A model generated the notes under the pieces. That model did not search any database. It worked only from the letters and a program-made list of their open reading frames with translations, and was not told the DNA's origin. From IMG/VR virus record IMGVR_UViG_2675903650_000020, positions 1 through 4,469 of that record: DNA of 4,469 bases, one strand, 5' to 3'. Below, piece after piece: positions 1 through 4,469 of the stretch. The position numbers and the translations under genes were made by a program. This stretch comes from a virus. Lineage: Duplodnaviria; Heunggongvirae; Uroviricota; Caudoviricetes. How positions within the stretch are numbered: the stretch's first letter is position 1; each line of letters opens with the position of its first letter.

Positions 1-122
1 GCATCACCTGATGAATAAATGTCATAGTTTATTACCGTTATGGTTGACAATGAGAACTGTTTTCATTTAAAAGACCGATATACGAAAGCATCTTTTCTTT
101 ACATTCTCCATTGGGATTACCT

Positions 123-159
123 CCGCCAGCTTCCATTCCTGCCGCTGGCGGCTTTTTTT
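123..159 (+). terminator. Terminator-like hairpin on the + strand: 8-bp GC-rich stem (CCGCCAGC 123-130 / GCTGGCGG 144-151), 13-nt loop, then T7 (153-159)
   Basis: Perfect inverted repeat followed directly by TTTTTTT on the + strand. On the minus strand the same hairpin is preceded by A7 and has no U tract after it, so it is only an intrinsic terminator in the + orientation. It abuts the nanS-p stop codon (161-163). Confidence 0.4.
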
Positions 160-160
160 A

Positions 161-2122
161 TCATGCCGCGGCATCCGCGTTGTTCACTTCCACCTTCACA
201 CTGTCAATCAGCAGCGTATATGTCGCCGCCTTTAATATGCCTGTCAGTTGCAGTTTGTCCGCCGCCCCTGATGCCGGAGATTTCACCAGTGTGAACGGCG
301 TCCCCCGTTTCTCATCCAGTACCGGCGTCACCTGAATGCTGTTGTTTCCGGCAAACTCAAAAGCCAGTGTGTGCCATCCGTTATCAAAGACCCCGAACGT
401 ATCCAGCTTCGCATTCGGCTTCTTGTGGTACATCGCGTTCAGGTTCGTCGCATCCGTCTGCAGGAAGAAGGACATCAGCATGTCGTTGCCTTCCTCTGCC
501 AGCGTCACTCCCTCCGGCAGGGACGACAACTGCCAGTAAATGCCCATGGCAAACCGATTCGGCACCAGTGAACCCGGCAACTTAAACCGTACGCTCACAC
601 GTCCCCCCTTCTTCAGTAACTCCACTCCCTGTCCGGCTGCATCATGCTCCAGAAACCAGATGTGGTTTTCCGGTTTATTCAGTTGCAGGGCCTTACCTCC
701 CGTAGCCCCCGCATCACTGACCACCGCTTCAGCAATGTTTTTGTTAACATTGTCTCCGCTCGCCGGTTTGTGATAATAGCGCCAGCCCTGTGATGCCAGG
801 TCTTCGCCGGACGCCAGCAGACTCATCAGGGTTCGGTTACTGACCGGGGCTTCCGGCTCTCTCTCCGTACCTTCACCGGAAGGTCCGGTGGGCTTCACCG
901 TATCAGGCTGTTTTCCGGTAATGAATTCAGCGGTTCTCCCGGCATGCACAAGAATCGCCGTTGCCAGACGGTCGGAAATAATCCCACGACGTGCCCATGA
1001 TCCAAAATGCGTTTTACGGTCGGCCGTCGTCCAGGTTTTGGCGTCCGTTCGACCACCGGCTCCGTAATACCCAATATCCGCAACATCCGGATCTTCTGAC
1101 GGCTCGTTGGTACCCACATTTCGCCCGTTTTCATCCGTCATAAACGGCACAAAGAAGATTTTTTTTGCGGATTTCGTCTTGTATGCACCATACACCGCAT
1201 CGTATTGCGAAGAATAAGTCTGCTTCCAGTAGTAGGTCGTGTCGCCACAAATCCAGGGAACCGATGACGGAGAGCCCCCGAGACACTGACCTCCGAATTC
1301 CGACAGGTCAGAACGATATTTTTCCACCATGGAATCAAACAGCCCCGGCTGAGTGGCGTATGCACCCTGTTTCAAATCAAACTCGCCCTGCATCCAGACC
1401 ACTGCAAGCAGAATATTTTTAGGGTTGGCCTTCAGTGCGGCCTGAGTACGGGTAAGCAGGTCCTTGTACAGTGGCTTATCTACACCCCAACGTGCCGAGG
1501 TCTCGCTTGCGCCGGTGGATTCGCTGAAGGTACCTTCATCGCCCGCCAAAAATGCAGAACCACCACGGCAGCACGGAACCAGAAGAATACCGGCATTCGC
1601 CGGAATAAACGGCAACAATTTCTTCGCGATATGTAATCCCTGCCCCACGCATCCATACTGAGCTGCGCTGGCTTTCGGGTGTGAAAACTTACTCAAATCC
1701 TGAACATCATGCAGGCAGTGGTCCGCAGGAATAATGTCATTGTAGTTACAGGACGCACCACCCGGCGTGACAGTGCTGCGACGCGCCAGCTGTTTAATAC
1801 GCGGGTCCGGACGGTCATATGTCTCCGGCAGCGGAAGCCCTTCACCATACGCCATACCGTTTGACTGCCCGGCCAGGGCAACAACAAAGTAATACTCCGG
1901 TTCGCTGGTGGTGCTGATAACTGTGCCTTCTCCATCCGACGGCTTCACCACCACAGGTGTGGTGACATCACCTTCCGCCGCAATGGCCTGCATCAGGGTA
2001 TAGGGCGTGATGGCCACCGGACTGCCAAATGGCTGCCACCCCTCCTTCAGTTTTTGTGTCAGTCGTTTCGCAAGGTCTGACGGCGATGCCGCCCTGACAA
2101 CATCATAGTGTTTAAATGCCAT
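161..2122 (-). CDS. nanS: Prophage NanS-p-type sialate (9-O-acetyl-neuraminate) O-acetylesterase: DUF1737-like N-terminus, SGNH/SASA esterase core, C-terminal putative carbohydrate-binding domain
   Basis: Long ORF with TGA stop at 161-163. N-terminal segment KHYDVVRAASPSDLAKRLTQKLKEGWQPFGSPVAITPY matches what I recall of DUF1737. Catalytic-serine block FVVALAGQSNGMAYGEG (GQSN) is typical of SGNH/SASA sialate O-acetylesterases. A Pro/Glu-rich linker (PTGPSGEGTEREPEAP) is followed by a ~230-residue C-terminal domain. The track ORF starts at ATG 2137 (MVERTMAFK...); I prefer ATG 2122 (MAFKHYD...) because GGTGGAAAG lies 4-9 nt upstream, whereas 2137 has no SD. Confidence 0.85.
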   Translation of the reverse strand: MAFKHYDVVRAASPSDLAKRLTQKLKEGWQPFGSPVAITPYTLMQAIAAEGDVTTPVVVKPSDGEGTVISTTSEPEYYFVVALAGQSNGMAYGEGLPLPETYDRPDPRIKQLARRSTVTPGGASCNYNDIIPADHCLHDVQDLSKFSHPKASAAQYGCVGQGLHIAKKLLPFIPANAGILLVPCCRGGSAFLAGDEGTFSESTGASETSARWGVDKPLYKDLLTRTQAALKANPKNILLAVVWMQGEFDLKQGAYATQPGLFDSMVEKYRSDLSEFGGQCLGGSPSSVPWICGDTTYYWKQTYSSQYDAVYGAYKTKSAKKIFFVPFMTDENGRNVGTNEPSEDPDVADIGYYGAGGRTDAKTWTTADRKTHFGSWARRGIISDRLATAILVHAGRTAEFITGKQPDTVKPTGPSGEGTEREPEAPVSNRTLMSLLASGEDLASQGWRYYHKPASGDNVNKNIAEAVVSDAGATGGKALQLNKPENHIWFLEHDAAGQGVELLKKGGRVSVRFKLPGSLVPNRFAMGIYWQLSSLPEGVTLAEEGNDMLMSFFLQTDATNLNAMYHKKPNAKLDTFGVFDNGWHTLAFEFAGNNSIQVTPVLDEKRGTPFTLVKSPASGAADKLQLTGILKAATYTLLIDSVKVEVNNADAAA

Positions 2123-2315
2123 GGTTCTTTCCACCATCTGAAAAATAATTCTTTAAAATACCTGACATGTAATACAGAAAAAACACAAAACCATACCTTA
2201 AATAAAAACCTCATCATCAAGCAGATATGCATGGGTAAACTACAAGACGAGATATAAACCACCCTGCATTTAAATAAACAATAAACAACATCAGAAAAAT
2301 AATTCTGCTCTATGG

Positions 2316-2342
2316 TTTACATTCAAAAATATCATTTATACT
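2316..2342 (+). promoter_or_regulatory. Candidate sigma70-type promoter for the 111-codon ORF (-35 TTTACA 2316-2321, -10 TATACT 2337-2342)
   Basis: Both hexamers match consensus at 5 of 6 positions, but the spacer is only 15 nt (suboptimal). Located about 40 nt upstream of ATG 2383. Purely a sequence-pattern call. Confidence 0.25.
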
Positions 2343-2382
2343 TTTCAGAACATCACCAGCAAGACATAAACAAGGAAACTAA

Positions 2383-2718
2383 ATGAAGTGGATTGTGATT
2401 GATACAGTTATCCAGCCATCATGCGGAATATCTTTTTCAGTCATATGGAGTAAAATAAAATTAATAATCTGGTATCAATCGGATGCTTTCTTACCTCCTG
2501 AAAGTATATTTACACTGACTCACACAGGTATCATGCTCAATAACAAAGTGCTACCTGTAACCATTTACAACGTAGTACCATTCAATAAAACATTCTGGAA
2601 TTTAATCAAAAACAGCCAGGAATGCCCTACAAATACAGATAACGTATTGAATGAATGCTTTAATAACCGTTGCACTCTGCAAATATGTCCTTATGGACTA
2701 AAACAACAAAGTCCATAA
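2383..2718 (+). CDS. Hypothetical small protein (111 aa), opposite strand to the phage late genes, inside the AT-rich insert; function unknown
   Basis: ATG 2383 is preceded by AAGGAA (2372-2377) with 5-nt spacing. 111 open codons in strongly AT-rich DNA, where stop codons should be frequent. The ORF ends inside a perfect 12-bp hairpin (2688-2721). I recognise no homolog. The protein is Ile/Asn-rich with 6 Cys. Confidence 0.45.
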
Positions 2719-2721
2719 GGA
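2688..2721 (+). other. Perfect 12-bp inverted repeat (TCCTTATGGACT / AGTCCATAAGGA) with 10-nt loop, spanning the stop codon of the 111-codon ORF
   Basis: Arms at 2688-2699 and 2710-2721 are exact reverse complements. The following + strand sequence GTTTACTCA is only weakly U-rich, so this is either a weak terminator or an RNA-stability or regulatory hairpin. Confidence 0.3.
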
Positions 2722-2734
2722 GTTTACTCACATC

Positions 2735-2773
2735 TGACAAAATCAATATAAACAGCCCCTCCGGAGAGGGGCT
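2735..2773 (-). terminator. Second minus-strand hairpin (8-bp stem AGCCCCTC/GAGGGGCT, 4-nt loop) followed by a moderately U-rich tract
   Basis: Perfect GC-rich stem 2754-2761 / 2766-2773. On the minus strand it is followed by GUUUAUAUUGAUUUUG (2753-2738). The U tract is interrupted, so it is weaker than the terminator at 2970-2995. Confidence 0.35.
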
Positions 2774-2969
2774 GGAGAGTGGCGCTATGTGCCATTGCAT
2801 GGTGCCGGGTGCCTCCCGGTGAATTCAGTACCAGCACCTGAATCCGCGATTATCCCATATACCTACTCGCTGATTGCCCCTCCGCACAGGGGGATTCACC
2901 ATGCCAGTTTCTTTTAACAAATTCCCCGCAAAACAGACAACTGTCAACCGTCTGAATTGTGAGACATTT

Positions 2970-2995
2970 AAAAAAAAGGCCCGCCGAAGCGAGCC
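2970..2995 (-). terminator. Rho-independent terminator downstream of the tRNA array (minus-strand RNA: GGCUCGC-UUCG-GCGGGCC + U8)
   Basis: Stem 2978-2984 / 2989-2995 has 6 pairs and one internal mismatch, with a UUCG tetraloop. It is followed on the minus strand by eight U (+ strand A-run 2970-2977). It lies 12 nt past the 3' end of the last tRNA. Confidence 0.7.
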
Positions 2996-3007
2996 TGATA
3001 ATAAATC

Positions 3008-3082
3008 TGGAGCGGGTAGCAGGAATCGAACCCGCATCATCAGACTGGAAGGCTGAGGTAATAGCCATTATACGGTACCCGC
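3008..3082 (-). tRNA. tRNA-Gly (anticodon UCC)-like, 75 nt, encoded CCA
   Basis: Manual fold of the reverse complement gives a 7-bp acceptor stem GCGGGTA/TACCCGC, T-arm GCGGG-TTCGATT-CCTGC, anticodon loop CTTCCAG (UCC), discriminator U and CCA. It closely resembles host glyT as I recall it, with a compensatory acceptor change and a C:U mismatch at the 31:39 closing pair. Confidence 0.8.
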
Positions 3083-3085
3083 ATA

Positions 3086-3161
3086 TGGTGCCGGCTACCG
3101 GAATCGAACTGGCGACCTGATGATTACAAGTCAGTTGCTCTACCATTGGAGCTAAACCAGC
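3086..3161 (-). tRNA. tRNA-Thr (anticodon UGU)-like, 76 nt, structurally degenerate (possible pseudo-tRNA)
   Basis: Acceptor stem GCTGGTT/AGCCGGC (two G.U pairs), D-arm GCTC-CAATGGTA-GAGC, anticodon loop CTTGTAA (UGU), variable loop AGGTC, T-loop TTCGATT, discriminator A and CCA. The overall layout aligns with E. coli tRNA-Thr, but the anticodon stem (ACTGA/TCATC) pairs at only 3 of 5 positions and the T-stem has one A:C mismatch. Confidence 0.6.
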
Positions 3162-3166
3162 ATGTT

Positions 3167-3241
3167 TGGCGGGACAGCGTGGACTCGAACCACGATAAGA
3201 AGGTTAACAGCCTTCCGTAATGACCTTTATACGACTGACCC
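3167..3241 (-). tRNA. tRNA-Asn (anticodon GUU)-like, 75 nt, encoded CCA
   Basis: Perfect anticodon stem GAAGG/CCTTC with loop CTGTTAA (GUU), T-arm CGTGG-TTCGAGT-CCACG, discriminator G and CCA, U8 present. The T-loop, anticodon loop and discriminator all match host tRNA-Asn as I recall it. The acceptor stem GGGTCAG/CTGTCCC has one U:U mismatch at 4:68. Confidence 0.8.
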
Positions 3242-3289
3242 AAATAAAAAAAGCCACCGTTGCAACTTAAGAGTCACTAACGGCAGCTT

Positions 3290-3326
3290 ATGCCAATAGT
3301 GTTGCTCATTTGCTCAATGATGTCAA
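3290..3326 (-). promoter_or_regulatory. Candidate late promoter (pR'-equivalent) between Q and the tRNA array; perfect -35 TTGACA at 3326..3321 (minus strand), -10 element unclear
   Basis: The Q stop codon to first tRNA gap is only about 90 nt and contains a consensus TTGACA. The best -10 candidates 17-20 nt downstream (AACACT / ACTATT) are weak. The position matches where lambdoid phages place pR' and the Q-utilisation site, which is established knowledge rather than something read from this sequence. Confidence 0.3.
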
Positions 3327-3332
3327 CACGTT

Positions 3333-3821
3333 CTATGCTACATGTTTAATTTTCTCTACACGTTTCCGGTTTTTAAACGCACTATCCAGAACCGGGTAAA
3401 TCATAAACAACGAGGCATTAAGGATTTCGTCAACTTCCCGTCGACAGGTTGCGAGCGATGGTTTTTGAATGCGCCCGCCGCCCCGGCATAACATCTTGCG
3501 AGGTCTTGCGACGCGATGATAGTAAGATGCAATAGCGTGCCTGGAAGAACCATGAGCGTAGTAGCTGAGGAGGATGCCGAAGGCTTTCTTGTCAATGTAC
3601 ATGACGGAATCGACGACCTGAGAAATCAACATTCCATCATCATCATTGCACATTGGTCTTGTCATAACTCTTCCCGGCTCTACGCTCTCCATGAACTTCG
3701 CTATTACGCTGCTCATGCGCTTTTCCAGACGACCTGAATAAACCCATGCGCCCCACAGTTCAAGCCAGCCATTCAGCCAATCGTGCTGTTCTTTGGTGAG
3801 GTTTAGTTCTCTTATGCCCAT
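3333..3821 (-). CDS. Q: Phage late-gene antitermination protein Q (Q21/QuuD-like family)
   Basis: 162-aa ORF with SD AGGGAG 7 nt upstream of ATG 3821. Motifs LELWGAW, SSVIAKF, TRPMCNDDDGMLI and LLSYYAHG parallel those I recall in DLP12 QuuD (LERWGAW, SSIAAGF, SRPQCCDDDAMII, LLVDYYVVG). Its position immediately downstream of ninG and upstream of the tRNAs and late genes fits the lambdoid layout. Confidence 0.85.
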   Translation of the reverse strand: MGIRELNLTKEQHDWLNGWLELWGAWVYSGRLEKRMSSVIAKFMESVEPGRVMTRPMCNDDDGMLISQVVDSVMYIDKKAFGILLSYYAHGSSRHAIASYYHRVARPRKMLCRGGGRIQKPSLATCRREVDEILNASLFMIYPVLDSAFKNRKRVEKIKHVA

Positions 3822-3864
3822 GCGACTTCTCCCTTGTTATCTGGAATGGTTTTTACTGAGAGCG

Positions 3865-4443
3865 TCATGTGGCCTCACTTCTGCTGTTTCTCAGATCTTT
3901 GAGTTTCTGTTGGTACTCTGCCTTGATGGCCCTGCACTCTTCGACAGTCCAGCGATGGCGGTTATGGTTTGATTCGATTTCATCTACTGCTTCCTGCCCG
4001 ATGCGGCTAATCAGTTCGACGCGATACGGAACGAGATTTCCGCTTTTGTGCTGGTTGCACACCACGCATTGCTTGTGAATATTGCGTTCATCAAATCGGA
4101 GTTGAGGTGCCGCAGCAGTTGTCCGGTAATGCCCGGCATCCCACTGAGCAGACGTGAGCGTTCCGCACGAGATACATGGTAAGTCGCGGTCTCTTTCTCT
4201 GATGAAGGCGTTTACGGCTTGTTGGGCTTGTTTAATCCAGTAACTGCGGGGCTTTAAGGCGAGTTTTCGAATCTTAAGTTTATCTTTCTGTTTCTGCTCC
4301 TCTCGTCGTCGTTTCTTCTCTGCTGCTTTTTCCGCTTTTTCTCGTTCTTTGCTTCGTCGTTCGAGTGCTAATTGAGTTCCGTGTTCCGGGCAGCACCACC
4401 ACTGATTTGAGAATGCCGGGTGAAACCATTCCTTGCATATTTG
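3865..4443 (-). CDS. ninG: NinG/Rap-family protein, C-terminal ~190 codons; the reading frame meets an in-frame TGA at 4444-4446 and has no canonical start codon before codon ~127, so the gene is N-terminally disrupted or continues beyond the window
   Basis: Translation of the minus strand gives ...[188 protein letters not shown], which is near-identical to what I recall of lambda NinG. The 66-aa track ORF 3865..4065 is just the part after the first in-frame GTG. Confidence 0.8.
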
Positions 4444-4469
4444 TCAACGACGGATGAAAAGTGATCCAC

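Follow-up and report, generated by a model that had tools for sequence, protein, structure and literature searches.

The only long open reading frame (ORF) of the AT-rich block in the window, the whole 4,469-nt stretch of Caudoviricetes DNA analysed here, is almost certainly iraL, a prophage-borne paralog of iraM that encodes an RssB anti-adaptor stabilising RpoS and is expressed from its own promoter in the uninduced, growing host. It is an already known and experimentally characterised gene in its usual prophage context (Table 1). The protein is identical in 111 of 111 amino acids to IraL of the uropathogenic Escherichia coli strain CFT073 (c1429, WP_000871291.1), which was described by Hryckowian et al. 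in 2014 in mBio (PMC4045071) and for which the locus name c1429 is given in PMC12890032; over the 336 nt of the coding sequence there is a single difference between the two, and it is synonymous. The NCBIfam profile of the anti-adapter protein IraM (NF007393) matched with 162 bits against a cut-off of 121 (E = 4.7e-48), residues 1-110 of the protein aligning with positions 1-113 of the 114 in the profile. Also chain A of the PDB structure 8TWD, IraM 1-78 bound to RssB, could be aligned with residues 1-78 of the window protein by sequence and without gaps (E = 9e-32). RefSeq names the product 'anti-adapter protein IraM' in every copy inspected, which for the iraL copies is a family-level name.

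Hryckowian et al. (PMC4045071) count a gene as iraL when it is at least 95% identical in nucleotide sequence to CFT073 iraL across the whole coding region, and when its promoter and upstream region are at least 96% identical to those of CFT073 and include the mapped transcription start. With its single synonymous difference the window ORF lies above the first of these thresholds, and with six substitutions relative to CFT073 in the upstream region 2140-2349 (about 97% identity) it lies above the second. The genomic context is likewise that of iraL, the late region of a lambdoid prophage with the gene on the opposite strand, as in the potB island of CFT073. Assignment to IraM proper, the K-12 ortholog, was rejected: it would call for at least 95% identity and for the flanks and promoter of iraM, whereas the similarity to K-12 iraM amounts to 71% of the nucleotides (window 2381-2702) and 62% of the amino acids over 107 residues and is confined to the coding sequence, the flanks and the promoter being unrelated.

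A preliminary description of this DNA, made from the sequence alone, had presented the gene as unrecognised and without a homolog, a view contradicted by the complete identity to CFT073 IraL, the NF007393 match and the RefSeq annotation. Pfam assigned no family to the ORF and holds no model for the IraM/IraL family, and the PHROGs match of the ORF, phrog_4407, is labelled 'unknown function'; these two circumstances probably explain why iraL can look unrecognised, and neither speaks against the assignment. No feature of the sequence contradicts the identification as iraL.

Table 1. Positions of the iraL cassette, its parts and the neighbouring elements in the window.
Feature	Position	Strand	Basis or remark
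iraL cassette	2124..2753	.	replaces the 217-232 bp, 49% G+C spacer (terminator to nanS-p start codon) of iraL-less lambdoid phages
21-bp direct repeats	2132-2152 CACCATCTGAAAAATAATTCT, 2286-2306 CAACATCAGAAAAATAATTCT	+	19/21 identical, 154 bp apart
Candidate sigma-70 promoter of iraL	2316..2344	+	TTTACA 2316-2321; TATACT 2337-2342 (15-bp spacer) or TACTTT 2339-2344 (17-bp spacer)
iraL transcription start	2350	+	homology to published 5'-RACE; 33-nt 5' UTR
iraL ribosome-binding site AAGGAA	2372-2377	+	5 nt before ATG
iraL coding sequence	2383..2718	+	RssB anti-adaptor, IraM/IraL/RssC family; CFT073 IraL identity, NF007393, 8TWD, dN/dS
Perfect 12-bp hairpin	2688..2721	+	arms 2688-2699 and 2710-2721, 12/12 complementary, 10-nt loop, spans TAA 2716-2718
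nanS-p-type prophage esterase	161..2122 (ORF from 2137)	-	DUF1737 + SASA + DUF6645; first late gene downstream of cassette
STnc100-family prophage sRNA	2744..2933	-	Rfam RF02076, 136 bits vs gathering score 47, full length
Terminator-like hairpin	2996..2977	-	terminator scan
Three-tRNA array downstream of Q	3008..3241	-	Rfam: 3241..3170, 3161..3089, 3082..3011
Q-type late antiterminator, 162 aa	3333..3821	-	Pfam PF06530, E = 3.6e-24

The activity of the protein has been reported for the identical gene. According to PMC4045071, His6-IraL and CBP-RssB copurify, and in two-hybrid assays IraL contacts only the N-terminal (receiver) domain of RssB. [quoted passage not shown] In transcriptome studies, PMC12890032 among them, iraL mRNA is reported to increase when fur is mutated and when the temperature is shifted to 37 °C. 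The crystal structure of IraM(1-78) with RssB (8TWD) is described as showing that IraM occludes the sigma-S-binding face of the receiver domain (PMC10844676).

In the mechanism proposed for the window, iraL would be transcribed from its own sigma-70 promoter, with the start at 2350, in the uninduced growing host, and the 111-aa IraL would bind the adaptor RssB at its receiver (N-terminal) domain. So bound, RssB would not hand over sigma-S (RpoS) to the protease ClpXP, and the longer-lived sigma-S would keep the general stress regulon partly on even in the logarithmic phase. The promoter, the coding sequence and the 3' hairpin would form a compact AT-rich unit that travels among lambdoid prophages. 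Because the gene is expressed in uninduced, growing CFT073 and alters the physiology of the host (PMC4045071), iraL behaves like a lysogenic-conversion gene, and the earlier suggestion that the ORF is expressed in the lysogen and changes the host agrees with what is reported there for the identical gene.

The 5'-RACE sequence published for CFT073 iraL matched window positions 2350-2381 in 30 of 32 bases, and no match was obtained in 200 shuffles. The length of the resulting leader agrees with the '-100 to +33' promoter fragment used in PMC4045071. Candidate promoter hexamers are found immediately before the start site that this homology gives, and for iraL both a dependence on sigma-70 and predicted elements at -10 and -35 have been reported (PMC4045071). 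As the iraL promoter was missed by the generic promoter scan, we infer its position from the published start site and a reading of the hexamers, the choice between which is indicated in Table 1. The 5' UTR has two substitutions relative to CFT073, and an expression level equal to that of CFT073 is therefore not guaranteed. The ribosome-binding site and the perfect hairpin over the stop codon, both pointed out in the preliminary description, are present as described, and its proposal that the gene has a promoter of its own is supported by the published RACE start, mapping to 2350, and by the sigma-70 dependence reported for CFT073 iraL.

The hairpin over the stop codon has a folding energy of -17.5 kcal/mol (z = -5.4) and is not followed by a proper U-tract. 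The iraL mRNA may end at this hairpin, or may be stabilised or protected by it. In the divergent iraL allele of OkiPb01705 (89% nucleotide identity) conservation of the hairpin was not found, both arms having uncompensated changes and the fold a z-score of +0.9, so the hairpin is probably dispensable. IraL has four C-terminal residues (QQSP) beyond the end of K-12 IraM. In the right arm of the hairpin (AGTCCATAAGGA), at window positions 2711-2719, the sequence GTCCATAAG is shared with the backbone sequence TTTGTCCATAAGAAAGCCCC, which stands directly before the terminator stem in iraL-less Stx phages (positions 4500-4512 of the Stx1 phage locus L006 and 5000-5012 of the Stx2a phage locus L004). 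Judged from this similarity, the four extra C-terminal codons may derive from the phage backbone at the original junction, the alternative of a chance match being put by rough estimate at about 1%.

The AT-rich block comprises 630 bp at window positions 2124-2753 and has a G+C content of 32% (0.322) between flanks of 49-55%. In 200-nt windows the G+C content is 0.305-0.345 over 2101-2700, as against 0.52-0.59 on the left side and about 0.48-0.53 on the right side; the nanS-p gene has 0.548 and the region 2754-4469 has 0.492. The iraL ORF is intact from its ATG, with 111 codons and a stop, and runs against the late genes of the phage on the other strand. The block had been placed by eye at 2140-2780, and both its AT-richness and the opposite-strand ORF of 111 codons at 2383..2718 were thus described correctly.

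Limits of the block were obtained by comparison with lambdoid phages that lack iraL, namely those of strain EC100 (L005), the Stx1 phage (L006) and the Stx2a phage (L004). Homology to all three stops at 2123 on the esterase side, one base before the conserved ATG 2122..2120, and sets in again at 2748-2754, where the terminator stem has its base. A permissive local alignment of the cassette with the 217-232-bp spacers of these phages aligned only the terminator stem, and the cassette has therefore taken the place of the spacer rather than being inserted into one that can still be recognised. It fills the entire intergenic space from the STnc100 terminator of the late region to the nanS-p esterase gene. 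As expected of a moron, it is present or absent between conserved phage genes, has a G+C content of 0.32 against about 0.5, and carries its own promoter and a 3' hairpin. The interpretation of the block as a horizontally acquired, moron-type cassette in a lambdoid late region is thereby upheld, as it swaps with the spacer at identical junctions.

The edges of the cassette also bear on its neighbours. The esterase ORF (2137..161 on the minus strand) has 658 codons when its start is set mechanically at 2137 (MVERTMAFKHYD...), five codons before the ATG 2122..2120. The latter is probably the real start, because homology to the esterases of other phages begins only there, and the ribosome-binding region of the esterase (GGTGGAAAG) comes from the iraL cassette. 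On the other side, the terminator scan placed the intrinsic terminator of STnc100, a G+C-rich stem at 2774..2753 followed by a U-run, at the right-hand edge of the cassette. A 126-bp plus-strand pseudogene, which RefSeq annotates as 'hypothetical protein' in related loci, lies inside STnc100 and is likely to be spurious. STnc100 is linked to the PasD sRNAs of Stx-type prophages in a 2026 preprint.

The first of the two 21-bp direct repeats (2132-2152) is at the left end of the long cassette, and the second (2286-2306) coincides with the left edge of the shorter form found in OkiPb01705; the repeat may have been left behind by recombination or may be a site of regulation. In OkiPb01705 the divergent allele, with 89% nucleotide identity, stands between a DUF3927 gene and the holin gene, without an esterase gene. 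Its homology to the window starts only at about 2288, about 62 bp upstream of the transcription start, which leaves the promoter, the coding sequence and the 3' region as the portable core. A TerB-family gene and a DUF3927 gene lie between the tRNAs (or Q) and STnc100 in related prophages (L005:3125-3556, L008:4354-4779), the former being intact in OkiPb01705 and having an internal stop in EC100. They form a further swappable accessory set at the late-region hot spot and are absent from the window.

Beyond the cassette the window is composite. ARAGORN found only two tRNAs in the array, Gly(tcc) and Asn(gtt). The iraL-bearing prophages of CFT073 and AF14 have Ile-Arg-Arg at the tRNA position. 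Homology to these two prophages breaks at 3032, inside the first tRNA, and the array is therefore a different or a recombinant set. A 98.7%-identical copy of Q in strain EC100 is annotated in RefSeq as 'antiterminator Q family protein'. Positions 1-3032 match iraL-bearing prophages with 98.5-99% identity and positions 3169-4442, with Q and NinG, match the iraL-less prophage of EC100 with 98.7% identity. At least 80% cover of the whole window in one place was found in none of the 5426 complete E. coli genomes and in none of the 96 loci compared. With the junction around 3032-3169, these split matches make the window a mosaic that is not represented in these collections.

The gene itself is common. 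At least 1431 of the 5426 complete E. coli genomes, about a quarter, carry at least 80% of window positions 2100-2850, and the cassette region is present in four deposited phage records. In IMG/VR 241 matches were confirmed, and the 80 retained among them are all 100% identical at the protein level. Among species-representative genomes, Escherichia albertii and one genome deposited under the name E. coli strain ECMA0423 encode the identical protein, and Shigella flexneri and one genome deposited under the name E. coli strain ECDA1023 have copies of the IraM type. More distant relatives were found in Citrobacter sp. ANG330 (L015; 54% identity) and in the deposited E. coli strain ECGI0523 (L016; 32% over 107 residues). 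In 2014 the family was reported only in Escherichia, Shigella and, as RssC, Salmonella (PMC4045071).

Seven copies of the gene were compared, and none is disrupted. The dN/dS ratio is 0.17 when the reference is iraM and 0.41 when it is the 89%-identical variant; judged from these comparisons, iraL is a real gene under purifying selection. A comparison of the same locus across related prophages had been proposed as a check, and in the seven copies the frame was intact. Altogether 75 loci share a collinear block reaching from 1965 to 2974 or 3032.

The closest known counterpart is the potB prophage of CFT073, which has the same order of Q, tRNAs, STnc100, opposite-strand iraL, a remnant of the esterase (DUF1737) and holin. 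The two loci share the identical protein, 30 of the 32 bases of the 5' UTR and start site, the AT-rich upstream region, the 12-bp hairpin, STnc100 and the placement on the opposite strand of the late region. They differ in that CFT073 has a truncated DUF1737 esterase pseudogene and the window a full-length nanS-p, and in that the antitermination protein of CFT073 is another one (an 822-bp gene, about 273 codons), while Q of the window has 162 aa. CFT073 also has another tRNA array and, in addition, a DUF3927 gene, which stands between the tRNAs and iraL, and an IS200, both absent from the window.

K-12 IraM (YcgW/ElbA) belongs to the same NF007393 family and has the same target, RssB. Its N-terminal domain (1-78), a PmrD-like antiparallel beta-barrel that contacts RssB, aligns in sequence with the window protein without gaps. 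[quoted passage not shown] They differ also in location, K-12 iraM adjoining the e14 element and iraL standing in a lambdoid late region. In PMC4045071 iraM is described as being 'on the e14 prophage'. In the K-12 record NC_000913.3 (L002, 1211413-1213107) RefSeq ends e14 at 1211412 and iraM lies just outside it (1211680-1212003), after the icdC pseudogene and adjoining ycgX (DUF1398). The iraL prophage of CFT073 likewise contains a DUF1398 gene (ydfO), which hints that the iraM-ycgX stretch may be the remnant of another lambdoid prophage. RssC of Salmonella belongs to the same family as IraL and is reported to have about 49% identity to iraL (PMC4045071).

With stxAB and other morons of lambdoid late regions iraL shares the hot spot between Q/tRNAs and the nanS-p/lysis genes, an atypical composition, its own promoter and an action on host physiology. 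The difference from stxAB is in orientation and exact site: stxAB is co-oriented with the late operon and lies upstream of the STnc100-like terminator, while iraL is anti-oriented and lies one element downstream. The preliminary description had put the block where Stx phages carry stxAB. This is right as to the hot spot, but not as to the position, stxAB being on the Q side of STnc100 and its terminator.

The orientation of iraL leaves room for another reading, in which the gene would chiefly serve the phage, being on in the lysogen and shut off by transcriptional interference when Q-modified polymerase reads through the terminator at 2774..2753. Silencing by the antisense Q-dependent late transcript had already been suggested in the preliminary description. 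We consider this reading, drawn from the arrangement of the genes, rather unlikely. The arrangement is consistent with it: Q, the tRNAs, STnc100 with its terminator, nanS-p and, in related loci, the holin and lysozyme genes are all on the minus strand and iraL alone between them is on the plus strand, and all loci compared, the divergent variant without nanS-p included, have iraL pointing against the late genes in this way. The generic scan found no minus-strand promoter in 2050-3350; candidate places for the active late promoter are the stretch right after Q (about 3330-3245) and the one shortly before STnc100 (about 2970-2934). Literature passages on iraL, which were not searched specifically for antisense transcription or prophage induction, mention no such coupling. 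In CFT073 iraL functions beside a truncated esterase pseudogene, and the phage context is therefore not needed for the activity of IraL. It is similarly doubtful, though conceivable, that the antisense placement is functional, so that induction would silence iraL and destabilise sigma-S at the onset of lytic growth, and that in the lysogen the sigma-S raised by IraL would feed back on prophage stability. Such antisense silencing would be a layer added to the anti-adaptor activity and would not replace it.

The anti-adaptor activity might also be accompanied by a second one, with IraL acting as a PmrD-like connector on another response regulator besides RssB. The fold of IraM 1-78 is reported to resemble only PmrD and to superpose on E. 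coli PmrD (PDB 4HN7) with an r.m.s.d. of about 1 A (PMC10844676), and the part of RssB bound by IraL, the receiver domain, is of a type common to all response regulators. The sequence searches returned IraM alone, and a connector role of this kind seems very improbable.

Defence or exclusion functions are often found in genes that have their own promoter and lie on the opposite strand of a prophage late region, and a role in anti-phage defence or superinfection exclusion had been among those suggested for the ORF. Beyond this general rule nothing pointed to such a role: no PADLOC-DB model matched (0 families at E ≤ 1), the 630-bp cassette contains no partner gene, and the protein is identical to one with a different, demonstrated activity, the inhibition of RssB. 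The suggestion was accordingly not sustained, and a defence gene is even less probable than a second connector target. Finally, the view that the ORF arose by chance or is what decay has left of an opposite-strand gene, to which the AT-richness would be the one pointer, is refuted and has practically no probability left, as an ORF of at least 111 codons turned up only 32 times in 20000 mononucleotide shuffles of the cassette and 87 times in 20000 first-order Markov ones (0.16-0.44%, in line with the earlier remark that such a length is unlikely by chance), dN/dS is 0.17-0.41, the frame is intact in all copies, the longest minus-strand ORFs within the block have 36-67 aa, and experiments at the protein level have been published.

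The preferred reading, that the ORF is iraL and its product an anti-adaptor of RssB, is biology published in 2014 and since extended by the IraM-RssB structure and by transcriptome studies. To this the present analysis adds the exact limits of the cassette (2124-2753), the replacement of the whole spacer and the frequency of about one in four among complete E. coli genomes. For genome scans the case carries a lesson, since a missing Pfam model together with a PHROG label of 'unknown function' makes a characterised gene seem novel. If the antisense reading were true, iraL would be a regulator coupled to the state of lysogeny rather than a simple passenger gene, and the stability of sigma-S in the host would be tied to the state of lysogeny or lysis. 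By means of IraL some pathogenic E. coli and Shigella keep their stress sigma factor high during growth, and it is prophages that spread iraL.
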